A stretch of 64,000 nucleotides of DNA from an uncultured bacterium. GTDB lineage: Bacteria; Babelota; Babeliae; Babelales; Vermiphilaceae. This document shows positions 9,083 to 58,637 of this stretch, piece by piece; position 1 is the stretch's first letter; the number at the start of each line of letters is the position of its first letter. Location: NCBI GenBank assembly GCA_963702025.1, contig OY969699.1, forward strand, positions 576,001 to 640,000, given 5' to 3'. The notes below the pieces were generated by a model. It was not told the DNA's origin. It did not search any database and worked only from the letters and a program-made list of their open reading frames with translations. Position numbers and translations under genes: made by a program.

Positions 9083-10153
9083 TTGCTTATGTTTTATTTT
9101 TTATCAACATACCTTAAAGATACTCTATTTTTTGCAAATGTATTCCATTATACCAGTTTTCGAGCGATTGCAGCATTTTTAACAGCTCTTTTGGTTGCCC
9201 TTATCTTTGGTGACAGGTTCATTCGGTATTCAGGAACCCTTTTTTTCTCTGGACCCAGAGAGTTCACCCCCGAGACTCATCAAACAAAAAACAAGGTGCC
9301 AACGATGGGCGGAATATTTATTATTGCCTCATTCCTGGTTGCCATAGCCTTCTGGGCAGATTGGGCCAATCCGTTAGTATGGGCTTTTGTGCTTTGCATG
9401 ACAGGGTTCGGGGCTATTGGGTTTTGGGATGATTGGAAAAAAATTACGCAAGGAAAAGGAGTTTCGGCATTTCAGAAGTTTATCGCTCAATGGTCAATGG
9501 CGGCGCTCGTTTGTCTGGTTTGGATCTATTATGGCCATGCACAGACTACCATATCATTTCCCTTTTTTAAGCACATGAACATTGATATTGGGTTATTTTT
9601 TATCCTCTGGGCCATGTTTGTCATAGTGAGCTGCAGCAATGCGGTTAATTTGACTGATGGACTTGATGGGCTTGCTATCAGCTGCTTAATGCCCAATATT
9701 CTTCTATATTCACTTCTTGCATATTTAGCAGGACATTTTATAATTGCGCTTTATCTGCATATTCCCTTTGCTCAAAGCAGTGAAGTTGCTGTTCTTGGGG
9801 CTGCTTTGATAGGTTCAGCTTTTGGTTTTTTTTGGTACAATGCCTACCCTGCCCAAGTATTTATGGGGGACGTTGGTTCGCTCTCGCTGGGTGCCTGCCT
9901 AGCATTGATGGCACTGATGGCAAAGCAAGAAGTGCTACTTGTTATTTCTGGCGGCATTTTTATTGCCGAAACAGTTTCAGTGATGCTGCAAATATTCACT
10001 TATAAACGTTGGAAGAAAAGAATATTTAAAATGGCTCCGTTGCATCACCATTTTGAGTTGATAGGATGGCCCGAATCAAAAATAACTACTCGTTTTAGCA
10101 TTATTTCTGTGGTGCTTTGTTTACTTGCTTTGGTCACCATCAAGCTCAGGTAA
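9083..10153 (+). CDS. mraY: phospho-N-acetylmuramoyl-pentapeptide transferase
   Basis: PTMGG, GFWDD, NAVNLTDGLDGLA, FMGDVGS, MAPLHHHFE. Start 9083 (TTG) or 9089 (ATG). Confidence 0.97.
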   Translation: MLMFYFLSTYLKDTLFFANVFHYTSFRAIAAFLTALLVALIFGDRFIRYSGTLFFSGPREFTPETHQTKNKVPTMGGIFIIASFLVAIAFWADWANPLVWAFVLCMTGFGAIGFWDDWKKITQGKGVSAFQKFIAQWSMAALVCLVWIYYGHAQTTISFPFFKHMNIDIGLFFILWAMFVIVSCSNAVNLTDGLDGLAISCLMPNILLYSLLAYLAGHFIIALYLHIPFAQSSEVAVLGAALIGSAFGFFWYNAYPAQVFMGDVGSLSLGACLALMALMAKQEVLLVISGGIFIAETVSVMLQIFTYKRWKKRIFKMAPLHHHFELIGWPESKITTRFSIISVVLCLLALVTIKLR

Positions 10154-10765
10154 TTTTGATGTATAAAATAGTATTTTATGAAGTTGCTTGGCACAGACAT
10201 AAAGATGCGCCGCTTGAGGCATCTGTGCTATGGCTAAGATGTCTTGATAGGTAAGATTATCATTATTCTGCGCATCAGCGGGTATCCCAAAATCCTTTAA
10301 GTATTCTATTAATTCTTTATTTTCCAGACTTGCTGCTTCATGAAGTAATGTGTTGTTGTACATATCGGTGAGACTAAAGTCGGCATCATATTGTTTTAAT
10401 AATTCCAGCATGGCCAGTGTATTATCATTATTTGCCTGGACGGCTTTATGCGCTGCGGTTTTTCCATACCAATTTTGCACATTGGCCGGAGCGCCTGCCT
10501 GTAGCAAGATTTCTGCGGCCTTAAGATTGCCACAAAATGCAGCTCGGTGAAGGGCATTATTCCCGCACTCATCACCATGATAAAGTGTAAAATTGGTTTG
10601 ACACAATCGCGCAATAACTTCTCCCTCCATATCATGCTGGGCCAAAAAATAGAGACGATTGCGGCGGTATTCTTGAGAACGTTTTTTTGATACAGCAAGT
10701 TGATTCATTGCCACTACATTGCTGCCATAGAGAACAAGTAACACGGTCCATTTTAATGATTTCAT
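10121..10765 (-). CDS. secreted ankyrin-repeat protein
   Basis: GNNALHRAA, GKTAAHKAV and NNTLLHEAA ankyrin repeats; signal peptide ends VVA-MNQ; 33-nt convergent overlap with mraY. Confidence 0.88.
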   Translation of the reverse strand: MKSLKWTVLLVLYGSNVVAMNQLAVSKKRSQEYRRNRLYFLAQHDMEGEVIARLCQTNFTLYHGDECGNNALHRAAFCGNLKAAEILLQAGAPANVQNWYGKTAAHKAVQANNDNTLAMLELLKQYDADFSLTDMYNNTLLHEAASLENKELIEYLKDFGIPADAQNNDNLTYQDILAIAQMPQAAHLYVCAKQLHKILFYTSKLPELDGDQSK

Positions 10766-10785
10766 TGGTCTCTTTGATAAAGAGG

Positions 10786-12081
10786 TTAAGATTTGTTATT
10801 AGTGTAAATCAAAAGACCAAAAAGAAGTAAAGTGCCAAAACCAATCAGCGGTAAAATGCCTGTTAACAATAAGCTTCTTATGCAAAAAGCAATAAAAAGG
10901 GTGCAACTTGCAAGTGCTGCCCAGGGTATTAATTGTTTTTTTAAAGTGGAATGATTTTTTCTATACGCATAGACAAGTGCAACCACGCTGAGGGTATAGG
11001 TGATGGTTGTCCCCAGAGCTGCCAACGGTTGTAAAATGAGTTGGTTGCCGGCAGTAGTTATCAAATAGAGAATGCAAAACGCCCATTCGGCAAATAAGCA
11101 AAGATAGGGAATGGCATGTTTATTGAGCCGTGTGAATAATTGCCATCCACGCATTATTTTGTGATTGGCCAAGATGTAAAGATTCCAGTTGTTGCTGTAT
11201 AAAATGCCATAACAGCCACCCAGCGCAGAAGAGGCAATTGCAAGATGGAAGAATGCCTGAAATTTTAAAGCAAGCCCGGGGCTTGCAGGGAATAATTTTG
11301 CAAGAAGGGCAGGAAATGCGCACAAATAACTTGCTTGTTGGGCCAGCGTGTTGCCCAAAGAAGTATAAAAGAGAAACTGAAAGAGAAACACGAGCGCCAT
11401 CATGATGGCAAATGAGATAATCACGGCACGCGGACCGTTTTTTTGCCCGTCTTGAATTTTGTTGCTCAAGGCGCAGGTGGCCTCAAAGCCTGTTGCCGCG
11501 TAGAGTACAAAAGGCAAGCTGCCGGGAATGCCATCCCATAGAATTGGAAGTGAAATAATTTCTGACGGAGAAAACAGTAAAATGCCTGCCCCGATTACAA
11601 AAAGTACCGGAATTAATTTAAATCCTAAAAACCCAAACTGGATGCGGCTGCCCGTTTGCATATTCAAAAGATTGAGGCAAATAAATAATGTTAAAATTAA
11701 GATATCGTAAAATAATACTGGGCCCAAAGAAAGTAGTGCCGGAAAGATTTGTGTCAGTAATGACATTGAGACATGGATCATTAAGCTGGCCGAGGCGAGC
11801 TTTGCAATAAAATAACTCCAAGTGCTCACAAAGCCCACAAAGGGATTAATTTCTTTTTGCCCAAAAACGTAAAAACCTCCCGATGGATGCAACTCAATTA
11901 AACGGGAGATAGCAATAATGAGTGGCAAAATTAAAAGACCAACAAGCGGATACATAAAACCACTGAGTAAACCGGTTCGCTTGGCAAGCTCTACGGTATT
12001 AATAAAAATACCGCCGCCCATCATAATATTAACGTTAATAAGTATTGCTGTGGGAAGAGATAGTTTCTTTTCAGTGGTCAT
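10786..12081 (-). CDS. APC-family amino acid permease
   Basis: NIMMGGGIF (TM1), PSGGFY, YAATGFE; about 12 hydrophobic segments. Start 12081 or 12108. Confidence 0.85.
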   Translation of the reverse strand: MTTEKKLSLPTAILINVNIMMGGGIFINTVELAKRTGLLSGFMYPLVGLLILPLIIAISRLIELHPSGGFYVFGQKEINPFVGFVSTWSYFIAKLASASLMIHVSMSLLTQIFPALLSLGPVLFYDILILTLFICLNLLNMQTGSRIQFGFLGFKLIPVLFVIGAGILLFSPSEIISLPILWDGIPGSLPFVLYAATGFEATCALSNKIQDGQKNGPRAVIISFAIMMALVFLFQFLFYTSLGNTLAQQASYLCAFPALLAKLFPASPGLALKFQAFFHLAIASSALGGCYGILYSNNWNLYILANHKIMRGWQLFTRLNKHAIPYLCLFAEWAFCILYLITTAGNQLILQPLAALGTTITYTLSVVALVYAYRKNHSTLKKQLIPWAALASCTLFIAFCIRSLLLTGILPLIGFGTLLLFGLLIYTNNKS

Positions 12082-12146
12082 AGGTTTGCTTTCTTTATTT
12101 GAATTCAATGCAATAATGCCAGCATAGCAAAAAGTGCGGAGTTACA

Positions 12147-14178: not shown

Positions 14179-15246
14179 ATGAATAAAATTAGTAAGTTAT
14201 TACTTATTTCAGTATTAGGTTCATTATCGCTACACGCGATGGAACAAGATGCATTTAAAAATTGGGTCAATAAAAAAAGAAAAGAAGTAACCCTTGCTGC
14301 TCCAAAGTCATTATTAACAAATGATCAGATATATAAAGAAGCTGAACAAAATGAGCACGCTGTGGCTATCATTAATGCAACAACACAAAGAAGTGCCAAA
14401 AGAACAAGAAAGTTTGCTCAAAGCGATCCGGGATCAGCAAAAAATATGATGACTTTTATTAACCAAAAACAAAAAAGTGTTGATTTTGAAGATCCTGAAT
14501 TGAATCGATTTGCAGCAGTCGTTGCTTTAACGGAATTTGCTAAGCCATCAAATGATTTAGTTCTTGCTATGTTGGAATATGCTAAGCTGGAAGAATCTAA
14601 AACTAATAATAAACCAATCGAAAAAACCGATGAAATCTCGGATAGTGAACCAGTCCAAGAGAGTAATGCGATCCCGGTTAAGGTAGCCGCACAAAATAGG
14701 TCGCCAGTTGTTGAAAAAGATGGTGATGAGATCATGAGCGTAATATCTGATGAAGAAGCGCCACTCTACGATTTTAGTAACTATGATGAAGATTTATTCA
14801 CTGCAGTTCCAACGATAGCAGAACCAAATTTTGCGGCGGAAATTGCTCAAATTGAAGAGATCAATCAAATCAAAGAAGCATCTCCAGTTAAGGCGGAAAT
14901 TGAGTTAGTTCTAGCTCCTATAGAAGCGATTGCACTAAATCCTCTTGAAGTTGCTCCTCGTCAGAAGCAAACTATTTCTCCAGCTGCTTTAGTTCAAAAT
15001 CCTATTGAAGAGATAGCGCCAAGCCCTTTTGAAGTTATAGCACCAAGACGACCTTTTCAAGGTGAAATTGACACATTTAATCAGGCATTGAAAAAACATT
15101 GCAGACTTAAAGGGAAAGAATTGCTTGATGCTCTTGCGAGTGAAATAACCTTGAATGATCCGACATCTTTCTTAAGTGTTGCACAGGCAATCAATTCGAA
15201 AGAGGCTGTTGATTTTGCACAGTATTGTATAGCAAAACAAAAATAA
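14179..15246 (+). CDS. hypothetical secreted low-complexity acidic protein
   Basis: GGAGG RBS precedes ATG 14179; signal ends SLHA-MEQ; Glu/Pro/Ala-rich middle with loose (P)xEV(I)APR repeats. Confidence 0.78.
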   Translation: MNKISKLLLISVLGSLSLHAMEQDAFKNWVNKKRKEVTLAAPKSLLTNDQIYKEAEQNEHAVAIINATTQRSAKRTRKFAQSDPGSAKNMMTFINQKQKSVDFEDPELNRFAAVVALTEFAKPSNDLVLAMLEYAKLEESKTNNKPIEKTDEISDSEPVQESNAIPVKVAAQNRSPVVEKDGDEIMSVISDEEAPLYDFSNYDEDLFTAVPTIAEPNFAAEIAQIEEINQIKEASPVKAEIELVLAPIEAIALNPLEVAPRQKQTISPAALVQNPIEEIAPSPFEVIAPRRPFQGEIDTFNQALKKHCRLKGKELLDALASEITLNDPTSFLSVAQAINSKEAVDFAQYCIAKQK

Positions 15247-16845: not shown

Positions 16846-17742
16846 ATGAATAAGAGAATCTTTACTCCATTAATATTAAATACGATTGCCATATGCGCAA
16901 TGGAAAAGCCATATGTTGCACCGTCAAAGATCCAGGATTTGGATGCAGTTAAAAAGGTGGTTGTTGATTATCTTAACAGAAATACGGCACCATTTTACAA
17001 AGTGGGGAGCCCTTATTGCCGACCAGAAGTTGATTTATCAAAGTCTCATGAAGAAGAAGTTAACAAAGGATTATTCTGCTTTTATGAAGATAAGGCTGTT
17101 GTATGTGCTCATGGCAGTGCCCATTTTGTAGATCTTTTTCAAAAAAAGGTAGTTAGAGTAATTCCGATTGGTAGGAAGCTTGAAGAAAGTGATAGAACAA
17201 ATCCCATGTTTACCAGTGCTGGCTGTGGAAAAATAGCAGGTTCGGATAAGGTACAAGTATTTTTAGGAGAACAAAGTGGAAGGATTTCAGCCTTCAGCCT
17301 TAAAAATGAATTTGAAGTAGATTCACCCAGAGAAATAGAAGCAACGCCGGAGATTCCTAAAACATTTGGCATTGTTCCTGGTAAAGTTCTTTCGTTCCAT
17401 TTTGCACCCGATGGTAAACAGGTTGCTGTGAAGTATGTAACTAATGTTCCGTGTATGGCACTCAGCGTTGCGTTTTTAAAGCTCTTATCGTCATCGCAAA
17501 AAAGTGGTTCATACTTAGCTGCCGAATCTAAAAAAAATAATCGCCGATCATGGATGCCATCTGCTACCAATTATGATTGGTCTGTTTTTGCAACCCGCGA
17601 ATGCATAAATGGCATTGAAGATATTCGGTTTGAGAATGAATTTTGCATAACAAAATGTGCACTTACCAAAAATGAAGAGAAATGGAAATTGATAAATCCA
17701 GAAACTACCCGTCCTGAATTAGTAAAAATAGAAGAAAAATAA
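16846..17742 (+). CDS. hypothetical secreted protein, possibly beta-propeller-like
   Basis: GAGGG RBS; signal ends AICA-MEK; SFHFAPDGKQVAV resembles a propeller blade. Confidence 0.72.
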   Translation: MNKRIFTPLILNTIAICAMEKPYVAPSKIQDLDAVKKVVVDYLNRNTAPFYKVGSPYCRPEVDLSKSHEEEVNKGLFCFYEDKAVVCAHGSAHFVDLFQKKVVRVIPIGRKLEESDRTNPMFTSAGCGKIAGSDKVQVFLGEQSGRISAFSLKNEFEVDSPREIEATPEIPKTFGIVPGKVLSFHFAPDGKQVAVKYVTNVPCMALSVAFLKLLSSSQKSGSYLAAESKKNNRRSWMPSATNYDWSVFATRECINGIEDIRFENEFCITKCALTKNEEKWKLINPETTRPELVKIEEK

Positions 17743-18005: not shown

Positions 18006-18317
18006 ATGAAATTCTTAGCACTTTCTATTCTTATGAGTACACCAATTATCGTTTCGATGGAAAAACATCCATCATTTGAGGAACTTCAACAGGTAGTTTA
18101 CCCAAGTAAACTCGTTAAAGTTCCGTCTTTAAATGGCTATATTACTGAAGTTGAGATTCCTACGGAAACGGAAGAATATATTTATAAGGGTAAAGATATT
18201 GGTTTTGAATTAGTGAAAATAAAAGAAATCAAAACCAGATATCATCTTACTCTTGACCAGAAGCAACTTGTAGTGGCATGTGTTCAAATTTTTGATCGTC
18301 CTGTGTCACCATGGTAA
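18006..18317 (+). CDS. small hypothetical secreted protein
   Basis: GAGGG RBS; signal ends IIVS-MEK. Confidence 0.65.
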   Translation: MKFLALSILMSTPIIVSMEKHPSFEELQQVVYPSKLVKVPSLNGYITEVEIPTETEEYIYKGKDIGFELVKIKEIKTRYHLTLDQKQLVVACVQIFDRPVSPW

Positions 18318-19260: not shown

Positions 19261-20161
19261 ATATTTTGGTTGGTTCAGGTCTTTTTTGAGCATGGCCACT
19301 CGTTATTAAATCCAAACATTGATTACTGCAAGTATTTTGATACTTTTCTAAGCATGCAGCGCAACAAATAAAATGTCTATTACAGGCTGCACGCAAACAA
19401 TTAGTGTAATCATCACACGGTGCACAGCAAATATAACAGCTGCCTAAAATGTCGTCAGTAACTTTTACTGTAATTCGTCCATCAAAAACATAATTTTTGC
19501 CTTTAAAAAATCCATTGGGAAATTGTTCAACATACCGGTGGATGCCACCCTTAATCTGATAAACTTTTTTTGTTACTCCTTTCAATGCAACGTAGGCCGA
19601 TGCGCGTTCACAACGAATGCCGCCGGTGCAAAACATGAGAACATCTTTTTCTTTCAGCTTATCGAGGTTGTTGTCTACATAGGTAGGAAAATCTCTAAAA
19701 TGGGTTATATCGGGCCTCAGTGCACCCGGAATGGTGCCAATAGCAGATTCATAAGGATTGCGGCAATCAATAATAACCAGATCTTTATTTTTTTGCGCAA
19801 GAAGTTCATGGGCTTGTGCCGGTTCTAAATGAATGCCTCCTTGATCAGCTGTTGCCGTTGCCGGATCGAGGCCAATATTTACAATTTCTTTTTTAACAAC
19901 AATACGAAGGCGCGGAAAGCGGCTATGTTCAGTGTTACTTTCTTTAAAATCTATTCCGTCAAACAACGGATGATTATTCATCGCTTTTTTGTAGAGCTGG
20001 ATATTTTCATTTTCTCCGCCCAGTGTTGCATTGATTCCTTCATGCGCAAGAATAACGCGCCCTTTAAGAGCGAGTTTGTAACAAAGATCTTTTTGCCATT
20101 GTAAAATTTTATTTGGATATTCTATGTAAACATATTTGTAGAATAAAATTATTGTTTGCAT
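19226..20161 (-). CDS. trhO: tRNA uridine(34) hydroxylase TrhO (UPF0176 rhodanese)
   Basis: FYKY, HEGINAT, FCTGGIRCERAS, GGIHRY, GKNYVFD and Cys-rich C-terminus. Confidence 0.9.
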   Translation of the reverse strand: MQTIILFYKYVYIEYPNKILQWQKDLCYKLALKGRVILAHEGINATLGGENENIQLYKKAMNNHPLFDGIDFKESNTEHSRFPRLRIVVKKEIVNIGLDPATATADQGGIHLEPAQAHELLAQKNKDLVIIDCRNPYESAIGTIPGALRPDITHFRDFPTYVDNNLDKLKEKDVLMFCTGGIRCERASAYVALKGVTKKVYQIKGGIHRYVEQFPNGFFKGKNYVFDGRITVKVTDDILGSCYICCAPCDDYTNCLRAACNRHFICCAACLEKYQNTCSNQCLDLITSGHAQKRPEPTKIYESSHSNKCSA

Positions 20162-21066
20162 TGTTGCTGCTCTTGTATACCTGAGCTAAGAGTTATTTTC
20201 CGATTGTTTTTAGTTTCAACTTTACAGCCCAGTGCTTTTAAAATTTGTTGCTTCTTTTCCGATATATTTAATGATATCCCATAGGCAAGTGGGGTCAACT
20301 TCTGTGTATTCAAACAATTGAACCCCAGATCATTGTGAATCAAAAAATGAGAAACAGTTTCAAATTCTATGTCGTCGAGCTTTTGCTCGCAGAGAGCATG
20401 AAGTAAAGAGTTGCCATTATTCTTTTGTTTATAGTTTTCATTTAACATAATGAGCGAATAAAGGGATAAACTGCGAGACAGTTCTTTATTTGTTTTTTTT
20501 GAAAGTTCTTTGATGTGTTCAAATGGTTGGGCCTCAAAGGCTTCAATGCTATCATGGTGCGAACATATTTTAATGCCATGTTGGGCAATTTGTACATAGG
20601 TATTTATGCAATCAACGTAATTTTTAAACGTTTGATTGTTTTTGTCACCTTCATCCATAGTTTCTTGTGCGTCAGTAAGAAATTCGTTAATGGTATTCAA
20701 TGAACAGCAATGTTGCTCTAATTCTTGAATAACAGAAATGAGCACCCATTTTTTTTCAAATTCATCTTTATTTATAGCGCATAATGAGAGCTTGCCATAG
20801 TTTGAAATTTTTTTTGATAGAGTAGCTAGCGAATTTGGTGGAATCATTGATGAGGGACGTTCATAAAAATAGGTGTGTGCTCGTTGCAACAGGCGCACCG
20901 GGTTATTGTCGTCACAAATGGCCAGTAAAAATTTATTAATTTTTAATTCTTTAAACAACGAGTTTGTATAGCTTAAGATTTGCTTCACTCGGCCCGACGC
21001 TTTTTCCATGGGCTGGCACGTGCAAGAGATTAATAACAATAATGAAAAAACAAAAGATAGATTCAT
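20149..21066 (-). CDS. secreted protein with degenerate C-terminal ankyrin repeats
   Basis: Signal ends CQP-MEK; NGNSLLHALC and LTPLAYG ankyrin-like motifs. Confidence 0.7.
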   Translation of the reverse strand: MNLSFVFSLLLLISCTCQPMEKASGRVKQILSYTNSLFKELKINKFLLAICDDNNPVRLLQRAHTYFYERPSSMIPPNSLATLSKKISNYGKLSLCAINKDEFEKKWVLISVIQELEQHCCSLNTINEFLTDAQETMDEGDKNNQTFKNYVDCINTYVQIAQHGIKICSHHDSIEAFEAQPFEHIKELSKKTNKELSRSLSLYSLIMLNENYKQKNNGNSLLHALCEQKLDDIEFETVSHFLIHNDLGFNCLNTQKLTPLAYGISLNISEKKQQILKALGCKVETKNNRKITLSSGIQEQQQCKQ

Positions 21067-21081: not shown

Positions 21082-21339
21082 TTATTTTTCGCTTGGAATA
21101 TAAGGACGTTCGTAAAAGCTTTTGAGTAAGTATTTAGGATCAACCTCTGTTACTTGTTGGAGTGGTTTATCTTGTTCGAATTGCTTTTTTATGCTGGGAT
21201 CTTGCGTGCCATCATACTCATCTTGCAAAAAATAAATAAAATGCGAGTGGTATGAAAGGGCAGGGATGGAATTTAACATCCCGTTGGCAGCACAAGCGGT
21301 AAGTAGGCTCAATATCGGTATAAAAAATAGTTTCTCCAT
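21082..21339 (-). CDS. small hypothetical secreted protein
   Basis: Start overlaps the stop of the upstream permease; signal ends AANG-MLN. Confidence 0.6.
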   Translation of the reverse strand: MEKLFFIPILSLLTACAANGMLNSIPALSYHSHFIYFLQDEYDGTQDPSIKKQFEQDKPLQQVTEVDPKYLLKSFYERPYIPSEK

Positions 21340-26379: not shown

Positions 26380-26895
26380 ATGGAATTGAGATTTCATAAA
26401 GAACTGTTTTTCTTGATACTTTCCTTTTTCCCAACCGTCGGCATGAGTAGCAAAGACAAAGTGCTCGCGTTACTCTTAAAAAATGCCACACAAGGATCTT
26501 TGGGTATTAAATTGCATAATTCACAGATTCTGTCTCGCGAAAAAGCACAGTACGATAAAACAACAGATATTGCGTATCAAAAAATTCATTTATCTTGGCA
26601 TGAATTTGCTGAAGATGTTCAGACAATCCATTTTTCGTTGATTGAGCCAAATGATCAGGAAGAAAAAGCACCCATTAATATATCAGTTATTTTTTTTCGT
26701 AAATTCCTTTTGCAATCTCGAAATGACAGCCAAAAGTTGCGCATGCATGTTATGAATACAAAGGGCCCTCGAGATTTTAACAGTTTTGATATACCCATAT
26801 CAGAATCTGATGAAACTCGCTCGGCCCTCGAGCTTTTTGTTGATGGCCCACATCTAGATATGGCCAAAATTAAGGTTCAGCTGACATCAGAATAA
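26380..26895 (+). CDS. hypothetical secreted protein
   Basis: AGGA RBS; hydrophobic N-terminus ends TVG-MSS. Confidence 0.65.
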   Translation: MELRFHKELFFLILSFFPTVGMSSKDKVLALLLKNATQGSLGIKLHNSQILSREKAQYDKTTDIAYQKIHLSWHEFAEDVQTIHFSLIEPNDQEEKAPINISVIFFRKFLLQSRNDSQKLRMHVMNTKGPRDFNSFDIPISESDETRSALELFVDGPHLDMAKIKVQLTSE

Positions 26896-35443: not shown

Positions 35444-35472
35444 TATTTACACTAATAATTTTGTTATACTTA

Positions 35473-35496
35473 AAGGGGAACCATGAGGTTCCCCTT
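35473..35496 (+). terminator. hairpin, possible terminator
   Basis: aaggggaacc-atga-ggttcccctt. Confidence 0.5.
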
Positions 35497-35516
35497 ATTC
35501 ATTACTAGGAATTATC

Positions 35517-41308: not shown

Positions 41309-41340
41309 TAATTTAAAATCGCTCAAAAATTACGCAAAGC

Positions 41341-41408
41341 GATTTTCATTTATCAATAATCTTTTTTATTATTCTCGATGAGTGGTATATTTTTTAGCGT
41401 ACTAAAAA
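41341..41408 (+). promoter_or_regulatory. duplicated upstream/promoter block (copy 2)
   Basis: Matches 39426..39495. Confidence 0.65.
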
Positions 41409-41425
41409 TAGGTCATTGATAAAAA

Positions 41426-42460
41426 ATGCTTGCGAATAAGAAATTCATGAAAATAATTTTAAAGTTTCTTCGAAAATTTTTAGCGGTTTGTTTTGGGCGC
41501 ACGGTTTTGCGAGTTGAGAAAGACAAAAGAAAGCGAACGGAGATCTCAATTTATTTTGCGACCCTGCTCATGCTTTCTCCTTGCGCAAATCACGGCTACA
41601 ATATTCCTTTTGTAGGGCTTGGTTCGTCAAGCTTCTTAGATGGTGGACCATTGCGGCAAATTCCCGGTTGGTATTTTGAGTTTTATAATTTTTTTTATAC
41701 CACGCATAGATTTTTAAATAATGAGGGAAAGCGGCTTGGTGGCATTCCCTCGCCACGCTACACGGCTTGGGGACCAGCCTTTGAACTTATCTACTATTCT
41801 CAAAAGGATTTTTTGGGGTTGGGCAACCTTGGTTTTGATATTACTCAGCCCGTAGTGTTTTATTCTCACATTCAACCAAATAAGCTTGGGATAAAAGACA
41901 GCGGTGGCGGATTGGGAGATTTGTTTGTTGGTGTTTTTGTGCAATCGCGCCCATTTTTTCGGAGCGATGGCGAACCATGGTATGTGAACCGGCTAGAATT
42001 CTCTGTTTCTTTACCGACGGGTAAATTTCGGGGTAGGGCAGACACTATCAATCCGGGCAACGGTGCATATTGGTTCACCCCGTATTGGGATGCAACGCTC
42101 TATCTCGGCAGATTTTCTGCTTCATGGGAACTTCATTATCTGTGGGTAGGCAAGAATCATCATACCCACATAAGGGCAGGCGATGCTTTTTATGGTAATT
42201 ATGCCTTTGCCTATGAGTTAACGGAAAAGCTATTTGTAGGTATCAATGGCTATTTTTTGAAACAGATTCACAATGATACATTGAATGGCGTCACTGTTCC
42301 GAGCAGCCGTGAACGCGTGTTTGCCACCGGAGTTGGCGGTCTTTATACATTTAATCCACATTTTACTGAAGTAATCTTGTGCAACTTTTTTTGGGAATTT
42401 GCAGTGAGAAACCGTCCACAGGGCTTTCAATTCTTGTTTCGGTATCTTAAGCACTTTTGA
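41426..42460 (+). CDS. COG4313/SphA-like outer-membrane beta-barrel, paralog 2
   Basis: Colinear and highly similar to 40367..41308; terminal Phe. Confidence 0.8.
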   Translation: MLANKKFMKIILKFLRKFLAVCFGRTVLRVEKDKRKRTEISIYFATLLMLSPCANHGYNIPFVGLGSSSFLDGGPLRQIPGWYFEFYNFFYTTHRFLNNEGKRLGGIPSPRYTAWGPAFELIYYSQKDFLGLGNLGFDITQPVVFYSHIQPNKLGIKDSGGGLGDLFVGVFVQSRPFFRSDGEPWYVNRLEFSVSLPTGKFRGRADTINPGNGAYWFTPYWDATLYLGRFSASWELHYLWVGKNHHTHIRAGDAFYGNYAFAYELTEKLFVGINGYFLKQIHNDTLNGVTVPSSRERVFATGVGGLYTFNPHFTEVILCNFFWEFAVRNRPQGFQFLFRYLKHF

Positions 42461-43459: not shown

Positions 43460-43954
43460 ATGAAATTATTACGATACTTATTTATTTTTCTATTGGTGCC
43501 GTTAACCACTGCTTCGATGCAGGTTGCTCTCTCTACGCATCAAGAGCTGCCGGCTCTCTTAGACAACTATTACCAAGAGCATAAAACAACATTCGAATCA
43601 AAAATTTCAGCCTTTAAGCAAATGCTTGAAACACTAGACTTACTCTTAGAGAAGGATGTTGAGCTTGCTCTTCTTGATGAGCAAGAAATTCATTACCTGC
43701 AAATCTGTTTAAAATTTATCACTGAACTTGCGCAACAGTATCCACAATGGAATGCTCGGCAAACAGCAGAATGCAGCGAAGAAGAATTATTTGCTCTCTA
43801 TGATGCAGGCTTTATAGGAGCTATGAATTATCACCAATTTAGAATATTGTTTTCTCTTTCATCATTGTCTGATGACGAAAGAATTGCATTTGAAAAAGAT
43901 TTAGCTGACTTTCTTTATAAGAAACTGGCGCATGAACAAATATCAATAAACTAA
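43460..43954 (+). CDS. secreted hypothetical protein (array type A)
   Basis: GGAGG RBS; signal shared with the 44707 gene. Confidence 0.72.
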   Translation: MKLLRYLFIFLLVPLTTASMQVALSTHQELPALLDNYYQEHKTTFESKISAFKQMLETLDLLLEKDVELALLDEQEIHYLQICLKFITELAQQYPQWNARQTAECSEEELFALYDAGFIGAMNYHQFRILFSLSSLSDDERIAFEKDLADFLYKKLAHEQISIN

Positions 43955-46462: not shown

Positions 46463-47935
46463 TTAAGCATTCTCTATTTTACTTCTGCACAAGGGGCATG
46501 GCTGCTTTACTTCCTTTATACGATCAAGGCAATCGGAGCAAAAGTTGTGTTTGCAATGTGTCTGGATATTCGCAAAATTGTCATTGCAAATGGGGCATTC
46601 TTCATAGCCCAATTTCTTATAATCAATAGAAAAGGTTTTAACCAGGTTTTGCTTGATGGTAGGGTTTGAAAAATTTTTAAAAATATTTACAAATGTTGGT
46701 GATGAAAAAACTTTTTCGGAGGGTTCATCTTCTAACCGTTTAATAAGAAGAAGCTCTAAGGCGCTAATTGAATGTTCAGTTTTTTTAATATTAATTATAT
46801 AAGCACCATTTTCAGTTCCTGCTGCAATAGTATTGCCATCACTGCTTATGGCAACGGATTGAACAGATTTATTTGCCGGTGAAAATAATTTAAAACATGA
46901 GTTTTTTGTACGATCGAATAAAACTATACCTATATTGGTTCCTAAAATAAGATTATTGTTATTCCATGGGCTTATTCTTGCTGCATTTATAGAGAATGGC
47001 GCTTCATTTCGAAATCTTACAGAAATTGTATCATCGCTTGTTTTTATAAGATAGGTCATAGTGCCATCGCTAGCCAAGAATCTATGATTACCATCGGGAG
47101 AAATATCTATATCGGCAATATTTTGAAGATCAGGATTAATTTCAATGGCCTTTGTTTTATAAGTGTTATCTTGAACCTTAAGGTACATAATGACTATTTT
47201 TGAATCGGATGCAAAAATAAAATTTTCTCCCGCTGCATCGGCTGCAAATCTTTTGATCTGAGTAACAGCCGGGGATAAATTAAGAGGGAATTCAAACTTC
47301 TTAGTGAGATCAACTAAGACGCATGAAATTTTATCACCATTTGTCTCCTCAGTGAATCGCCACTTGCCATTGGGTGAGATGGTTGAGAGTAATGCTGCTG
47401 TATCGCGAGGTAACAGGGTTAAATCTTTGGTCTTTAACGCTAATTGATAGAAACCTTTATTGTGGGCACATACAAGCATGTCATTGCCGCTAAAAGCTAT
47501 TCCATTAAGTGGAAGGGGATAGGTATTTTCATATACATCATCACCCCATCCTTGTTTCTTTTGTAGTACTTTTAATTTATTTCCATAAGCGATTGCCACT
47601 GCCGTGCCATCGTGATTCAAGGCAATGTGGTGTGCCGCTTCGGGCAATGTAACAACCGTAGAGTTATCTTTGGACACAATTCTTTGTGTTAAAGGTAATG
47701 GCTTTGCTGCTTGCACCAGATCATCATGATCAAGTCTATGACCGAGTTTGAATAAAAGAAGCTTATTTTCTGCAACCAGGGTTGATCGAGTTTTTTCTTG
47801 CGTTTCTTTATCAGCTTTAGTCAGTTCGGTAACTTTTGTTTCCCATGGATCTTTTTGTTCTAGATTCTTATCCATGGCAGTGAGAGAGCAAATAGAGAAT
47901 GTAGCAATAATTAGTGCATATTTTTTTGGTATCAT
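46463..47935 (-). CDS. secreted WD40-like beta-propeller protein with C-terminal C3HC4 RING finger
   Basis: Blades IALNHDG, IAFSGND, ISPNGKW, ISPDGNH, ISPWNNN, AISSDGN; RING CPIC-x10-CKH-x2-CSDC-x10-CPLC; signal ends SLTA-MDK. Confidence 0.88.
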   Translation of the reverse strand: MIPKKYALIIATFSICSLTAMDKNLEQKDPWETKVTELTKADKETQEKTRSTLVAENKLLLFKLGHRLDHDDLVQAAKPLPLTQRIVSKDNSTVVTLPEAAHHIALNHDGTAVAIAYGNKLKVLQKKQGWGDDVYENTYPLPLNGIAFSGNDMLVCAHNKGFYQLALKTKDLTLLPRDTAALLSTISPNGKWRFTEETNGDKISCVLVDLTKKFEFPLNLSPAVTQIKRFAADAAGENFIFASDSKIVIMYLKVQDNTYKTKAIEINPDLQNIADIDISPDGNHRFLASDGTMTYLIKTSDDTISVRFRNEAPFSINAARISPWNNNNLILGTNIGIVLFDRTKNSCFKLFSPANKSVQSVAISSDGNTIAAGTENGAYIINIKKTEHSISALELLLIKRLEDEPSEKVFSSPTFVNIFKNFSNPTIKQNLVKTFSIDYKKLGYEECPICNDNFANIQTHCKHNFCSDCLDRIKEVKQPCPLCRSKIENA

Positions 47936-48257: not shown

Positions 48258-48596
48258 ATGCACAAGAATTCACTATCATTGTTATTGCTTCTTGTTGGCT
48301 TATCATGCCAAATCTCTATGGTTGGTAATACATTTCAAATAAATACCAAATTTTATATCAATGATGGGACTATTAAGGCTAGCACGATAAACATTAACAC
48401 AGAAACTATAAGCGGTTCCGGGGTTATTGAGGGAAAAAAGATAACTATAACCTGCGATAAATTTGACTTTCAAGGTTCAATTGTTTGTACTGAAGAGTGT
48501 AACATCTATGCAAAAGAAACCTTCGATCCTGATAAAGTAAAATGTTCCGGCGGCGGTAAATTTACTGCTTACATTTCTAATCTTAATGCTCAGTAA
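48258..48596 (+). CDS. small secreted beta-rich hypothetical protein
   Basis: AAGGA RBS; signal peptide; NDGTIKA/GSGVIEG beta-helix-like repeats. Confidence 0.65.
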   Translation: MHKNSLSLLLLLVGLSCQISMVGNTFQINTKFYINDGTIKASTININTETISGSGVIEGKKITITCDKFDFQGSIVCTEECNIYAKETFDPDKVKCSGGGKFTAYISNLNAQ

Positions 48597-49030: not shown

Positions 49031-49693
49031 ATGAATAGCAAATTTCTTCTCTGTCTTTTTTTTAGTATACCATTATGTGCCATGAAACAATCTGATAATT
49101 ACAACCTTGAACTGCTCACCGGTAAGGATTTAGAATCAATATTGCCATTTGTTGCGCAACAACGCATTGAGCTCTTTCGAGAGTATCCATACCTTTATGA
49201 AGGTAATCTTACCGAAGAAATGAATTATTTAGAATGGTTTGCCAAACTACCTCACACGGCAATGGCCGTTGCCTATCATGATAAACAACCGGTTGGCTTT
49301 GTAAGTGGCACATCGTTTAAAGATTTTGATACTCATTTTAAAGGTTCGTGCGATGTTTTTCTAAAAGCCGATTTAAAACCGGAAGAATATTATTATATCA
49401 CTGAAGGAATTGTGGTGCCTGAACATCGTGGCAATGCATTGGCCCTGAAGCTCTCTGCGTTGATAGAGGGATATGCAAAAAAAATAGGATTCACCAAAGG
49501 CTGTTTCGTTGATGAAAGTCATGACAAACATCCCCTTAAGCCGGCCAATTATTATTCTCTCGAAACTGCATTTAAAAAAGCAGGATATATCAAATCACCC
49601 TTAAGTATAAAATTTAACTGGGTTACTCGGCAAGTAGCTGGCCAAGCCAGAGATCAGGAACATGAACTGTACTATTGGATGAAGAATATTTAA
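49031..49693 (+). CDS. GNAT-family acetyltransferase with signal peptide
   Basis: RIELFREYPYLYEG, YYYITEGIVVPEHRGNAL (motif A), HPLKPANY; signal ends PLCA-MKQ. Confidence 0.82.
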   Translation: MNSKFLLCLFFSIPLCAMKQSDNYNLELLTGKDLESILPFVAQQRIELFREYPYLYEGNLTEEMNYLEWFAKLPHTAMAVAYHDKQPVGFVSGTSFKDFDTHFKGSCDVFLKADLKPEEYYYITEGIVVPEHRGNALALKLSALIEGYAKKIGFTKGCFVDESHDKHPLKPANYYSLETAFKKAGYIKSPLSIKFNWVTRQVAGQARDQEHELYYWMKNI

Positions 49694-52978: not shown

Positions 52979-54259
52979 ATGTTAAGAAATCTAAAAATAT
53001 CTCACAGTATCATTCTCTTACTCATGGTTGGTGTTGCAGCATCAGGAATGGTATACGATAATCGCTACCTTCCCCTCATGCAATATCCTTATATTTCCGT
53101 TCCCGGTCGAGAATCTCATCTGACCGGTGACTTTTTTGTAACAACAGCCAGTAGAGCCATAGATGATCGTGAGCGAGAAATTGGCATTATCGAACTTGCC
53201 GGGCCACTTGACCAAGCGCAGCTGGCATACTCTTTTGTATTGGATGGAAAGCCAGACCCTCTTGATCCGGGCCTCTTGGCCGGAGAATTACCCTGGACCA
53301 TCAGAGGAAAATTGCAAACACAGGGTTTTGCGTTTTCCTATCGCCAATATCTGGGATGCGGTTTTTCTGCTGGTGTTTTAACATTGGCTATGCGATCCAA
53401 TTCGTACCTCGATTTTTTCTTTAATCCTCCCAAAACGTCATCAGAAACACCACCATTTTCTCCCGGTGAAGTTGAGGAGCTAGGGCGCGTGTTGCGCGGC
53501 ATGTTTGCCGATTTGGGACTTTCATGCAATCATGTGCAGCAGGGTGGTATGGGTGATATTGAGGCATACCTACGATGGGCAAATCGCTGTGAATATTCTT
53601 ATAAATTGCGATCGCTTGAATATGCCGGGCGTTTGGGAGTGCTTATTCCTACTGGAGTTACTCGTAATATTTTTCACCCTGCTTCTATTCCATTTGGTGG
53701 CAATGGGCACTGGGGAGTGTATGCAAGCGGCGATGCGGAACTTGAGGTAAAGGAAGATTGGAAAATTGGCGTGTTGTTGCGTTTGAGTAAACGATTTGCA
53801 CGCACAAGAATTGAACGAATGCCGGTCGCGCGTCCTTTGCTGCCGGGCCAAGCGTATCCTTCTCCCAGCGAGCCACAGGTATTTGGTGTTTTGGTGGGTC
53901 CAGCCCGAGTAAATCCCGGCTTATCTGAAATTTTTTCGATGTATGCTCAATGGGAAGGTATCCGTGAAGGGCTGGGTGTTCGTTTGCAATATACGCTCGT
54001 GAATCACAATCAAGATCATTGGACTGATCTTCGCGTGGATCAAACAGTAAAAGCTAATCTTGAGCAAGTTGAAAAACTTTCATCATGGGCATCAGAATAT
54101 GTAACACTGAGTGCTTTTTATGATTTTGACAAAGTTGCACCTATTCGTGGCTATAATCCTATTGTTCGTGTAGCTTGGGATATACCATATACTTTATTAG
54201 TGGCACATAAATCGGTGCATTCATATAAAGTAGTTTTAGGTTTGGAATTTAATTTTTAA
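52979..54259 (+). CDS. putative outer-membrane beta-barrel protein
   Basis: Signal peptide, alternating-aromatic strands, GGMGDIE, C-terminal YKVVLGLEFNF. Confidence 0.65.
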   Translation: MLRNLKISHSIILLLMVGVAASGMVYDNRYLPLMQYPYISVPGRESHLTGDFFVTTASRAIDDREREIGIIELAGPLDQAQLAYSFVLDGKPDPLDPGLLAGELPWTIRGKLQTQGFAFSYRQYLGCGFSAGVLTLAMRSNSYLDFFFNPPKTSSETPPFSPGEVEELGRVLRGMFADLGLSCNHVQQGGMGDIEAYLRWANRCEYSYKLRSLEYAGRLGVLIPTGVTRNIFHPASIPFGGNGHWGVYASGDAELEVKEDWKIGVLLRLSKRFARTRIERMPVARPLLPGQAYPSPSEPQVFGVLVGPARVNPGLSEIFSMYAQWEGIREGLGVRLQYTLVNHNQDHWTDLRVDQTVKANLEQVEKLSSWASEYVTLSAFYDFDKVAPIRGYNPIVRVAWDIPYTLLVAHKSVHSYKVVLGLEFNF

Positions 54260-56109: not shown

Positions 56110-56116
56110 AATACTC

Positions 56117-56500
56117 ATGAAGTTTTTTGTATCTTTCCTTATAGTTTCACTTTGTTTATCCAACGCTGCATCCGGCATGCATGTATTTGCTGAACTTTTG
56201 AACAAGAAAGTGAAGCAAAGTAAAAATGGCAATCACAAATCAACTCGAATCATTAATAAAACGTTGAGAGAATTGAATGTTCCTTTAAATCCGGATCATG
56301 TTATTGGATTTAGCGTGGGATCATCACCAAACCATTTTAATGTTTATTTTCTTATCCAACATTGGCAAGGTGTTATTCCGGTGGTTTTAAAAAAGAAAGG
56401 CTGGAGGCCAAAGTGCCAAGAAAATAGGAATCAAGAAAGTAACGATAAGCAAGAGTCACTTGAAGAAAAAAATCCCCGTTTAAAACGGGGATTTTCGTGA
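56117..56500 (+). CDS. small hypothetical secreted protein
   Basis: Signal ends AASG-MHV; 3' end contains a 27-nt hairpin. Confidence 0.6.
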   Translation: MKFFVSFLIVSLCLSNAASGMHVFAELLNKKVKQSKNGNHKSTRIINKTLRELNVPLNPDHVIGFSVGSSPNHFNVYFLIQHWQGVIPVVLKKKGWRPKCQENRNQESNDKQESLEEKNPRLKRGFS

Positions 56501-56654: not shown

Positions 56655-57329
56655 TTACTTATTTTCTAAATTAGCTTCGGGAATACCCAGATGATATGCA
56701 ACTATTTTTAAGTCATCCATATCAAGCGATTTATTGAGTGGTGCTGCTTCAGTAAGTTTCGCGGAAAGATTTTTTTGTATTTGGGTAATCCGTGTCTGTA
56801 AATGGGCCTGTTTTGTTAAGTGGAGTGCCATCTCTTGATTAATAATCTCTTTATTTCTGCTGTAGCATGCTTGAAGGCATAATAATAGTTCATCCGTTTC
56901 TGCGTATGAACGCTCTTCTAAAGGTATTTTTTCATTAGCAATAAGTGTTTCATAATCGTTAATTTCTTGCTCAGCATCAGCAACTCTCTCTTTATTTTTA
57001 TCTAATACTGATTTGAGTATTTTTTCTTCTTGGGTGGATGTGACCCAGGGTGCTTTTGAAAAATCGGTGTTTATAAAAAATACTCTAATAGCTTCTTCGA
57101 ACACCATATTATTCTTGTGTGCTTCTTGGACCAATTGTTTTAATTTTTCTGTGCGCTCTGGAGTGAGTTCGCGGTTTGGACCATTAAAAAGAGTAGGTTC
57201 AATAGGGCATATCACTGGACTTGTTTGGCACTTTCCATCCTTAACGGAAATAAGATGTGGTAATTCCATAGCAGGGAGTGCACTTATGGATAATGCACAT
57301 AAAGTTGAACAGGCTATTATTTTGTTCAT
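56655..57329 (-). CDS. secreted hypothetical helical protein (paralog pair)
   Basis: AGGA RBS before MNKIIAC; signal ends ALPA-MEL; PVICPI..LT.E..EKLKQL shared with the upstream gene. Confidence 0.75.
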   Translation of the reverse strand: MNKIIACSTLCALSISALPAMELPHLISVKDGKCQTSPVICPIEPTLFNGPNRELTPERTEKLKQLVQEAHKNNMVFEEAIRVFFINTDFSKAPWVTSTQEEKILKSVLDKNKERVADAEQEINDYETLIANEKIPLEERSYAETDELLLCLQACYSRNKEIINQEMALHLTKQAHLQTRITQIQKNLSAKLTEAAPLNKSLDMDDLKIVAYHLGIPEANLENK

Positions 57330-57372
57330 GCATGGATCCTTTTTTTTAAAATGAAAAAATTGTTTTTTAGTT

Positions 57373-58020
57373 CTATGGCTTACTATTACTCGCTTCATCA
57401 GAGTTTTTCTGAATGTGACGCTCCTTAAATTTTTTTTCAAGTTCATTGTGTGTGGTATGTAATTCTGATTGTGTTTCTAAATAGAGCGCCATTTGCAATG
57501 TGATAACCTCTTGGCTTGTATTGCGTAGCACATTGAGGAGATTAATTATGGTTAATTCTTCTTCATCGCGTGTTTCTTGTAATTCAGTATTGGCTATGCG
57601 ATTGTTACGCTGTGCAATATCATTCTCAATTGTAGCGACATTATTTTGTGCTTCCTTTAAAAATTTTTTAGCTACTTGCGCACACGACAATCCTGCATAT
57701 AAAGGAATGCCTCTCTTTGGAAGATCATCCATAAAAATACATTCTTGAATTGCAGCATTAAATAAATTGTCACAACGGTATGCGTGATGAGCAAGTTGCT
57801 TTAATTTTTCAATTTGTTCTTTAGTGAGCGTGCGATCAGAAAGATCAATAGGGCATGTTACCGGTTTTAACGCTGTCTCAGGCGGTTCGCGGAATATAAT
57901 TTTGGCAGGCATTGGCGGTTCGAGCAGTTTAAGGGCGTCAGGAGCTTGAGCTTTGTTCATGGTCAGGAGACTATTCATTTGAACTGTGCACAAGATTGAA
58001 TAAAAAACTATTTTGCTCAC
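57373..58020 (-). CDS. secreted hypothetical helical protein (paralog pair)
   Basis: GTG start with AAGGA RBS; signal ends SLLT-MNK; PVTCPI..LTKEQIEKLKQL, QMALYL. Confidence 0.75.
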   Translation of the reverse strand: MSKIVFYSILCTVQMNSLLTMNKAQAPDALKLLEPPMPAKIIFREPPETALKPVTCPIDLSDRTLTKEQIEKLKQLAHHAYRCDNLFNAAIQECIFMDDLPKRGIPLYAGLSCAQVAKKFLKEAQNNVATIENDIAQRNNRIANTELQETRDEEELTIINLLNVLRNTSQEVITLQMALYLETQSELHTTHNELEKKFKERHIQKNSDEASNSKP

Positions 58021-58085
58021 CGGTATTCCTTTTATTACGAGAGAGATTGCCGTTAGATTATTCCACTTATTTTATAAAAACAAGA

Positions 58086-58637
58086 TTATTTGTTGGTTCG
58101 TTTTTGCCGCTTATTTGGGGCATTATTTTCTGCCGGCGTTAAATCGAGGGTTTTCACACTAATGGGAACAGTATCAATTTGTTTTTGAAGTGTAGCAATT
58201 TGCACTAAACCTAGATTTGCTCGAGCAGACAATAACTGTTTAGTGACTTCTAGTTTTCTTACCAGCGGCGCTATTTCTTTATGAGCAATCTGTTCAACTG
58301 TTTGGCTTTTTTTGGGGCGCAAGTAGAGATCGGTGTCGCAGTCTTCTAATTCATATTCTAGTTTTGTAATTCTTTCAATCAAGAATTTCTCACAATTTTG
58401 TAGAGTATTATTTAAAAGATAAGGTTGTAACAGGTGTGGAAGGCTATTTAGTATGTCACTTGATTCTTGGTTACGTGCTTTATCGATACTATTATTTATG
58501 CCGTCTATCACAAATTGGCAGAATCTAACTTTTTTTGATTCACGTTCAATGAAGGAAGCTCGTTTCATGCCGTGTGCGGTGACTACTAGAGAACAAAAAA
58601 GAATTATTGTTGCATATCGTAGGGAGATCATTATCAT
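58086..58637 (-). CDS. secreted hypothetical protein
   Basis: Signal ends TAHG-MKR; basic C-terminus PNKRQKRTNK. Confidence 0.7.
   Translation of the reverse strand: MIMISLRYATIILFCSLVVTAHGMKRASFIERESKKVRFCQFVIDGINNSIDKARNQESSDILNSLPHLLQPYLLNNTLQNCEKFLIERITKLEYELEDCDTDLYLRPKKSQTVEQIAHKEIAPLVRKLEVTKQLLSARANLGLVQIATLQKQIDTVPISVKTLDLTPAENNAPNKRQKRTNK

Follow-up and report, generated by a model that had tools for sequence, protein, structure and literature searches.

The window considered here is a stretch of 64,000 nucleotides (positions 576001-640000) from the single 1,596,033-base contig of an uncultured bacterium of the phylum Babelota, whose genome is designated G000 and is 95% complete. 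It holds a series of genes whose products begin with a Sec-type leader and place methionine (Met) directly after the predicted cleavage site, at position +1 (residues are given in the standard one- or three-letter code). Babelota are a widespread phylum of protist parasites, and the described members of Ca. Babelota (Dependentiae, TM6) are reported as intracellular in protists in the accessible parts of PMC6561590, PMC4378268 and PMC12172432. Among named sequences, the MreB of G000 is nearest to those of 'Candidatus Dependentiae bacterium Noda2021' (89%), 'Candidatus Babeliales bacterium' (84%) and 'Candidatus Dependentiae bacterium' (82%), which places the genome in this phylum. An earlier, sequence-only reading of the window had listed 20 such genes and proposed that the Met provides unrelated secreted proteins with a sorting code or with an N-terminus of eukaryotic appearance. 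All 20 motifs are present in the window (Table 1); the coordinates listed for them mark gene starts, and a leader of n/h/c type separates each start from the Met codon, 17-24 residues further on. As claimed, ten of the motifs are M-E or M-D (nine ME, one MD).

Of the 1554 genes called in G000, 712 were flagged by our own hydropathy rules as soluble proteins with a Sec-type leader; for Babelota in general, the accessible text of PMC6561590 gives about 44% of proteins with leaders. All cleavage sites are predictions from rules of our own, not from a standard predictor such as SignalP. Two of the predictors are blind to +1: an untrained heuristic that scores only -3, -1 and the distance from the hydrophobic (h) region, and a lineage-tuned matrix trained on positions -13 to -1 of 182 M-E sites, which recovered 144 of the 182 held-out M-E sites in 10-fold cross-validation. 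A third, Met-seeking rule searches for small-x-small-Met after the leader. The blind matrix cuts at the listed Met in 17 of the 20 window genes, some of which belonged to its training set, and misses it in the genes starting at 34221, 48258 and 58020. All 712 leader proteins were scanned with Pfam, at E <=1e-5 in the first two batches and <=1e-6 in the others, and were then assigned manually to classes, in which orphans are proteins without a Pfam match. Controls from unrelated genomes comprise 126 leaders from 72 loci, from which three same-phylum loci and pattern-selected genes had been dropped.

Table 1. Leader-bearing genes of the window (a hyphen within a motif marks the point before the listed Met)
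Product	Position	Strand	Leader and Met	Basis or remark
Ankyrin protein	10121..10765	-	leader 19 aa; predicted +1 Met 10708; VVA-MNQ	Pfam Ank
Orphan	14179..15246	+	leader 20 aa; +1 Met 14239; LHA-MEQ	no Pfam match
Orphan	16846..17742	+	leader 18 aa; +1 Met 16900; ICA-MEKP	Pfam scan, blind matrix
Orphan	18006..18317	+	leader 17 aa; +1 Met 18057; IVS-MEK	Pfam scan, blind matrix
Orphan	20149..21066	-	leader 19 aa, Pro at -1; +1 Met 21009; CQP-MEK	Pfam scan, blind matrix
Short orphan	21082..21339	-	+1 Met 21279; ANG-MLN	blind matrix; site less sure because of a lipobox-like LTAC stretch in the leader (by eye)
Orphan	26380..26895	+	+1 Met 26443; TVG-MSS	Pfam scan, blind matrix
Orphan	26999..27559	+	+1 Met 27071; SFA-MEKP	Pfam scan, blind matrix
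Ankyrin protein	27584..28138	+	+1 Met 27653; CSA-MEQ	Pfam Ank
Ankyrin-like protein	28289..29188	+	+1 Met 28352; VIA-MEMP	BLAST to ankyrin set, outside Pfam batches; CaaX-type C-terminus CIIS
Orphan	32764..34221	-	Met 34158; SLS-MEDP	blind matrix cuts two residues earlier
Orphan	43460..43954	+	+1 Met 43517; TAS-MQV	Pfam scan, blind matrix
WD40-like propeller with RING finger	46463..47935	-	+1 Met 47875; LTA-MDK	Pfam zf-C3HC4, propeller
Short orphan	48258..48596	+	Met 48318; QIS-MVG	blind matrix cuts one residue earlier
GNAT acetyltransferase with leader	49031..49693	+	+1 Met 49082; LCA-MKQ	homologues have M, S, T, H or E at +1
Predicted outer-membrane beta-barrel, FapF/COG4313 fold	52979..54259	+	+1 Met 53048; ASG-MVYDNR	predicted structure
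Orphan	56117..56500	+	+1 Met 56177; ASG-MHV	Pfam scan, blind matrix
Orphan	56655..57329	-	+1 Met 57269; LPA-MELP	Pfam scan, blind matrix
Orphan, paralogue of 56655..57329	57373..58020	-	Met 57960; LLT-MNK	blind matrix cuts three residues earlier
Orphan	58086..58637	-	+1 Met 58568; AHG-MKR	Pfam scan, blind matrix
Control: PrsA-like (lipoprotein-like, no Pfam match) and SurA-like (Rotamase_2) genes	34415..36416	+	leaders without +1 Met	
Control: two COG4313-like barrel genes	40367..42460	+	first without +1 Met	first is Pfam Phenol_MetA_deg; only the first was scanned

Methionine at +1 across the genome

Met stands at +1 in 199 of the 712 leader proteins of G000 by the untrained heuristic and in 283 by the blind matrix. 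Shuffling of positions +1 to +25 gives a mean of 22.9 (maximum 36) under the heuristic, leaders of unrelated bacteria give 2 of 126 (heuristic) or 0 of 126 (matrix), and the background of Met in mature regions of leader proteins is 1.6-1.8%. The excess does not depend on a cleavage model, as Met frequency in leader proteins peaks at 11% at position 20, compared with 3% in other proteins. The Met-seeking rule returns 331 cases, which is an upper estimate because the same rule gives 221 for Ala and 196 for Leu, and across predictors the share of leader proteins with a predicted +1 Met is roughly 30-45%. Gln is found at +1 in 37 of 712 (heuristic). Paralogue expansion is ruled out as the cause of the excess, because the 331 Met-seeking cases belong to 244 families, of which 203 have a single member.

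The proteins that carry the predicted +1 Met are not a random sample of the leader-bearing set. By the matrix, eukaryote-like proteins (ankyrin, LRR, WD40, RING, Sel1, SET, UCH and similar) have it in 91 of 122 cases (94 by the Met-seeking rule), or in 37 of the 61 that lie outside the training set; orphans have it in 170 of 416 and other enzymes in 21 of 85. The corresponding counts are 1 of 33 for envelope housekeeping proteins, a class that includes membrane-anchored and lipoprotein-like entries, 0 of 13 for surface adhesin-like proteins, 0 of 24 for glycan enzymes and 0 of 19 for cytoplasmic proteins mis-flagged among the 712. After removal by hand of 16 anchored or lipoprotein-like entries, the cleavable envelope, surface and glycan proteins together give 1 of 54. 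Selectivity also holds with one member per family (about 52 of 106 versus 3 of 55; untrained heuristic). Measured against background, envelope proteins and unrelated genomes, a comparison which the sequence-only reading had proposed, the predicted +1 Met is far above chance and is a genuine, genome-wide and class-selective N-terminal rule, which sorts with eukaryote-like and orphan proteins as had been suggested. Two more specific claims stand in part. Within the window all ankyrin and RING proteins have the Met, but across the genome there are real exceptions, which include a RING protein, a histone deacetylase, two phospholipases and several ankyrin proteins. The restriction of the Met to non-envelope proteins agrees with the PrsA-like, SurA-like and first COG4313-like controls but not with the listed gene 52979, and the Met is not confined to such proteins since the product of 52979 is itself a predicted outer-membrane barrel.

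The leaders themselves have the features of Sec substrates of signal peptidase I: a basic n-region, a hydrophobic h-region and small residues at -3 and -1. In the predicted Met sites -1 is A, G or S in 248 of 283, -3 is mostly L, A, I, S, V or T, and the leaders are mostly 17-24 residues long, with no conserved motif upstream of the cut other than the -3/-1 pattern. The architecture is not that of type IV prepilins (N-methyl-Phe/Met), as the hydrophobic stretch precedes the Met and positions +5 to +25 are polar (mean hydropathy -0.51). One feature deviates: 47 of 693 leaders have Pro at the predicted -1, a residue unusual there in substrates of signal peptidase I, which suggests an enzyme with a relaxed P1 pocket. 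In the barrel orthologues L355 and L367 a Pro at -1 aligns with Ala, Ser or Gly. With 17 of the 283 Met sites showing Pro at -1, and the enzyme therefore unusual, the signal peptidase of this lineage might be thought to prefer Met at P1', or a dedicated paralogue to cut these leaders. We regard this as very unlikely. Pro at -1 is equally common at non-Met sites (30 of 410), and the sole LepB must also cut BamA, secretin and other leaders without Met; a dedicated second signal peptidase was not found in G000. Genomes with many hits to the motif pattern described below (G001, G002, G003, G006 and G055) have one LepB, those with two have 0-6 hits (by eye), and a peptidase preference would leave class selectivity unexplained.

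Many normally cytoplasmic enzymes of G000 carry leaders, among them several GNATs. In the family of the window GNAT the 13 leader-bearing members have at +1 M (3), T (4), S (3), H (1) or E (1), with one uncertain; a fourteenth homologue, whose N-terminus is doubtful, and a relative without a leader are not counted. In the large subunit of ribonucleotide reductase (L276:2640-4469, plus strand) the leader precedes M-E-A-Q. Leaders without the Met are found on adenylate kinase, NDP kinase, an ATP-dependent DNA ligase, peroxiredoxin and thioredoxins. The loci L331-L332 and L244:7159-12469 encode two GDP-mannose dehydratases, a UDP-GlcNAc 2-epimerase, five GT17 enzymes and several methyltransferases, with leaders fused at the normal start and none with +1 Met.

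The extended motif and its possible origins

The residues that follow the predicted +1 Met are also constrained. At +2 (n=283) there are Glu 161, Gln 31, Asp 16, His 14, Lys 10, Ala 9 and Asn 9; E, D, N and Q together account for 217, small residues for 29 and bulky hydrophobic residues for 12. The preference for E, Q or D at mature position 2 is seen in 208 of 283 cases after Met versus 20 of 102 after A, S or T. Pro is found at +4 in 88 of the 283 Met sites, and among singletons in 35 of 89 after M-E, 11 of 85 after Met without Glu and 23 of 266 after other residues. The predicted mature start is M-E(-x-P), longer than Met alone; the sequence-only reading had overlooked both the Pro at +4 and the use of Ala or Ser in other lineages. 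Between paralogues +1 Met is kept in 31 of 48 pairs versus 21 of 67 for internal Met (p=6e-4, by crude pairwise alignment). The comparison of orthologues outside the barrel family covers only 4 usable Met-class pairs.

The Met could be a second translation start, either bacterial or of Kozak type for host ribosomes, that gives a leaderless form of the protein, and this had been raised because A-M-E encodes GCN-ATG-GA. A Shine-Dalgarno motif precedes 236 of 331 leader starts, which indicates that the leader is translated from its own start, versus 2 of 331 internal Met and 282 of 7305 Met deep in proteins. GTG and TTG are not enriched at +1. The codons before the Met are mostly those of genome-wide codon pairs (Ala p=0.057, Gly p=0.060, Ser p=0.011, the last being one of three tests); the Ser excess lies in AGC, without a clear purine excess (purine at -3 in 26 of 55 Ser codons, compared with about 39% of deep Ser-Met pairs), and the Ala codons show no C-bias. 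The GCN-ATG-GA context and the over-represented AGC codon count in favour of a second start, which we consider extremely improbable, and the suggested Kozak context is not borne out.

A historical origin has more to recommend it. Leaders may have been grafted in front of old start codons, as the sequence-only reading had also considered, or a founder module of leader plus MEKP may have been recombined, with little selection on the Met thereafter. Grafting is real: the leaderless GNAT relative P0015 starts within about two residues of the +1 Met (aligned by eye), and cytoplasmic enzymes bear leaders. Fast change of motif number within a genus, described below, would fit founder effects. As the general cause of the Met, grafting fails in that +2 does not resemble residue 2 of leaderless proteins, which is Lys in 123 and Glu in 32 of 681, compared with 10 and 161 of 283 after the predicted +1 Met. 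Enzymes with evident grafted leaders (the GT17 and GDP-mannose dehydratase families) mostly lack the Met, the window GNAT family varies between M, S and T at +1, and the greater retention of +1 than of internal Met also speaks against weak selection. Recent common descent of the leaders was rejected, since similarity among those of unrelated Met-class proteins hardly exceeds that among other leaders (identity 0.155 vs 0.147; same codon 0.243 vs 0.235). We therefore rate a purely historical Met as unlikely.

Distribution in the phylum and beyond

Distribution was assessed with the pattern MKK-gap-[AG]ME, with reading frame not enforced, in 200 other genomes of the phylum; related genomes are not independent in any of these tallies. 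There are 16 hits in G000 and 0-63 in the others, compared with 0-2 for a reversed control. At least five hits occur in 58 of the 200 genomes, and these are spread unevenly among families: 24 of 66 in the family of G000, 8 of 9 in f2, 4 of 4 in f18, 8 of 27 in f8 and 0 of 14 in f4. Samples of 60-97 kb from 11 other families range by the matrix from 12 Met in 27 leaders (f2) to 0 in 23 (f4). Even within one genus (g41) the counts are 1, 1, 9, 10 and 19, and secretins are present in both high- and low-hit genomes. The Met rule is patchy within the phylum. Ankyrin-rich genomes with 0-3 hits also occur (G036, G040, G041, G043 and G048), and the four that were checked have two or three secretins.

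Outside the phylum, 0 of 301 alphaproteobacterial genomes reach five hits. About 12 small Alphaproteobacteria have in-frame leader plus M-E hits (by eye), and samples from nine of these give Met in 6 of 80 leaders by the heuristic, one being a selected gene, and 2 of 80 by the matrix; a weak parallel in this group is possible. G087, G214, G233, G257, G345 and other small AT-rich Alphaproteobacteria have in-frame leader plus M-E genes, ATP/ADP translocases were found in three of five tested, and two ankyrin proteins of G257 appear to start with S-E. Viral contigs gave 29 pattern hits, none of them a leader followed by MEKP. A scan across the Genome Taxonomy Database (GTDB) found 120 loci, spread over 34 of the 64 parts of the collection, and most of these are chance matches or lone genes. 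Several Met-class genes occur together at L143, L176 and L147, which come from small Tlc-bearing genomes that probably belong to the same phylum, because median identities to G000 are 64% and 49%. Locus L147, filed as 'uncultured Pseudomonadota bacterium', is the one with 49% and has Met-class leaders in 5 of 10.

Predicted export and a possible host-facing N-terminus

Export in G000 would run through Sec followed by type II secretion, the only route found. The genome encodes one LepB and SecA, and Pfam identifies two secretins, GspC, GspG and MshEN, with further gsp-like genes recognized by synteny and N-termini (by eye). At L238:4-8463 the two secretin genes are clustered with gspC, and gspF-G-H-I-J-K-like genes and an ATPase gene lie elsewhere. 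No OEP match for the TolC family was found in the 95% complete genome. The accessible portion of PMC4378268 reports type II secretion as the only secretion system of Babela, and that of PMC4776705 reports two gspD copies across TM6.

A further candidate component is the barrel encoded by gene 52979, whose predicted structure (mean pLDDT 89) is an outer-membrane barrel with FapF and then the COG4313 channel as best matches. The match to FapF, a polypeptide transporter, has E 4.5e-12, a TM-score of about 0.5 and 10% identity; that to COG4313, a small-molecule channel, is almost as good (E 3e-9). The family has no Pfam match and is present, usually with paralogues, in 41 of 41 searched genomes of the phylum (orthologues L346-L373), and on the model it is a candidate second export route or uptake channel. 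After the Met its members have V, S, I or G and then an invariant D4-N5; in this family the Met may be part of a structural plug motif. The predicted barrel is a counter-example to a tag borne by effectors only.

The best reading of the predicted N-termini is selection for host compatibility on proteins exported by Sec and type II secretion, which we judge to have about an even chance of being correct. In eukaryotes, N-terminal Glu, Asp, Gln, Asn, Lys and Arg lead to degradation routes, Met is removed before small residues, and Met followed by a bulky hydrophobic residue is a context-dependent degron (from the accessible text of PMC8037982). Signal peptidase I would likely cut just before the Met of Met-Glu(-x-Pro), and the hundreds of unrelated Met-class proteins would leave through type II secretion, with the host protist as their likely destination. 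There, the residues that bacteria commonly have at +1 (Glu, Asp, Gln, Asn or Lys) would act as N-degrons in the cytosol. A Met with a large polar residue behind it would be neither removed by Met-aminopeptidase nor read as the Met-hydrophobic degron, and could be N-acetylated, M-E/D/N/Q starts being NatB-type substrates. Speculatively, Pro at +4 may also shield the mature proteins from N-terminal exopeptidases. Envelope proteins never meet the host machinery and so would be free at +1, and elsewhere in the phylum Ala or Ser appears to satisfy the same constraint.

Host compatibility is taken as the likely purpose because several lines of evidence combine: class selectivity, avoidance at +2, CaaX-type C-termini, switching among M, S and T in the GNAT family, and Ala or Ser elsewhere in the phylum. 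Cleavage at the predicted site would give a eukaryote-type N-terminus, as the sequence-only reading had envisaged. The leader-bearing GNATs have M, S or T at +1 in 10 of 13, and the variation of hit number within a genus, with secretins in high- and low-hit genomes alike, is also counted for this reading, as is the retention of +1 Met between paralogues. CaaX motifs direct prenylation by host enzymes, as in Legionella AnkB and Salmonella SifA, and ends of the form C-x-[ILV]-x occur in 13 of 283 Met-class versus 2 of 410 other leader proteins (p=3e-4; mean of 0.65 expected from shifted positions). Such ends are found on the ankyrin-like protein at 28289..29188 and on the products of 13 other genes of G000, ankyrin, WD40 and orphan proteins among them (CIIS, CSIS, CSIL, CIIQ and similar), which are candidate host-prenylated proteins. 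Cys at -4 from the C-terminus is found in 15 of 283 Met-class and 7 of 410 other leader proteins. Clusters near the N-terminus resembling nuclear localization signals gave no clear signal (20 of 283 Met-class, 17 of 410 other leader and 58 of 681 leaderless proteins).

Several points weigh against host compatibility. The CaaX-type pattern was fixed after Cys at -4 had been viewed, and the difference is not significant within classes (p=0.11 and 0.16); the test is partly confounded because 9 of the 13 cases are eukaryote-like proteins. About a quarter of eukaryote-like proteins are without the Met, some starting with D, E, Q or K, and those of G000 show no preference for small residues instead (13 of 31 vs 11 of 32 in envelope proteins). 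None of the 24 glycan and nucleotide-sugar enzymes with leaders has the Met, although they may need host substrates. The Met of the predicted barrel is kept, as M-V or M-S, in 21 of 26 full-length orthologues of 32-64% identity (by eye; three broken or uncalled loci left out). Stable starts should include M-D and M-K as well, yet at +2 Glu is tenfold over Asp (161 vs 16) and Lys is avoided; the Arabidopsis proportions of ME and MD differ far less (11.1% vs 6.8%; accessible text of PMC8037982). The coupling of Pro at +4 to M-E resembles recognition by one binder. Most N-acetyltransferases act co-translationally at the ribosome, according to the accessible text of PMC10038149. The ankyrin proteins of the Met-poor lineages start with M, A, S, T, G, V or P, mostly Ala, in 12 of 14 (G040) and 19 of 25 (G041), compared with 19 of 54 cleavable envelope, surface and glycan proteins of G000 and 43 of 126 unrelated leaders, but the proteins of each set are paralogues in tandem, and a site misplaced by one residue in an Ala-rich c-region would tend to yield Ala. 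Four Met calls in G040 probably lie inside the c-region.

The main rival reading is that M-E-x-P serves as a linear tag for export. Signal peptidase I would expose it, and a periplasmic chaperone, the type II system or a FapF-like barrel would recognize it and thereby separate host-bound proteins from those of the envelope. This is a tentative possibility, and keeps its weight because host compatibility leaves the Glu/Asp ratio, the avoidance of M-K and the Pro+4 coupling unexplained, all of which fit a specific binder. Sharp class selectivity, Sec plus type II secretion as the sole route found, and a FapF-like barrel family in every genome searched also suit a tag. Precedents exist in the N-terminal peptide of curli CsgA and in mature N-termini of Plasmodium. 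The latter confer export in the account accessible in PMC10653839. Set against this are the ankyrin-rich genomes that hold secretins and few hits, variation of the motif within a genus, the eukaryote-like proteins of G000 that do without the Met, homologous GNATs that switch +1 freely, and a barrel that matches a small-molecule channel almost as well; no receptor candidate was identified. The tag and host compatibility are not mutually exclusive. A four-residue code M-E-x-P might do both: once signal peptidase I exposes it, it would direct several hundred effectors across the outer membrane and also make them resemble ribosome-born eukaryotic proteins. This combination we consider doubtful. 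If true, it would be a bacterial counterpart of the mature N-terminus of PEXEL proteins and would act as a linear signal that sorts proteins for type II or FapF-like secretion.

Among known systems, the Babelota Met rule is best filed as a variant of the +1 rules after signal peptidase I, with a live chance of a new type of export signal. Its closest relative is the Q-rule of Bacteroidetes, also a lineage-wide +1 preference of signal peptidase I substrates drawn from genome statistics, for which the accessible texts of PMC5837995 and PMC10653852 propose a role in protein stability through protection of the N-terminus. The Babelota rule differs in using Met rather than Gln, in the longer motif M-E-x-P and in its patchy occurrence within the phylum. 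As described in those texts, the Q-rule does not appear to be compartment-specific, unlike the selective rule reported here, and is coupled to an enzyme, glutaminyl cyclase; for the Babelota rule no bacterial modifying enzyme was identified, and no dedicated search was made.

The PEXEL proteins of Plasmodium have the consensus x-E/Q/D and favour E, D or Q at mature position 2, and the predicted Babelota starts follow the same preference. They are also similar in that the mature N-terminus after leader removal separates host-exported from resident proteins, as presented in the accessible part of PMC10653839. Babelota differ in using bacterial Sec, with one LepB and no second protease, and no upstream RxL-type motif, and the export role considered here is a putative one. 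Chlamydia CPAF (PMC6717882) and the secreted ankyrin proteins of Babela massiliensis (PMC4378268) share a cleavable Sec leader, a type II second step and a host destination; no +1 rule is mentioned in the accessible text of either report, whereas in G000 hundreds of predicted substrates have one N-terminus. With respect to the eukaryotic N-degron and Met-excision rules (PMC8037982, accessible text), M-E/D/N/Q starts likewise keep their Met and avoid the listed degrons, but the Babelota N-terminus would be made by a bacterial peptidase rather than by the ribosome, and Glu is far more dominant. The Met rule was not found described in the literature searched, mostly open-access main texts without the supplements, where signal-peptide tables could bear on it; the word 'methionine' is absent from the main texts of PMC4378268, PMC6561590, PMC4776705 and PMC12172432.

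The rule addresses how host-bound proteins are told from envelope residents in Babelota, and offers a predictor, based on sequence only, of candidate effectors among the orphans (170-208 of 416 in G000). With it, short peptides could be used to test two general questions: does surveillance of N-degrons by the host shape the N-termini of bacterial effectors exported by Sec, and can a linear tag be read by a type II or FapF-like exporter? For annotation it carries a warning: gene callers may place the start at the +1 Met and so miss the leader, as happened for gene 1145 and locus L350. Elsewhere in the window, a minus-strand open reading frame at about 52600-52900 resembles a translated tRNA gene, and a tRNA is therefore probably located there.

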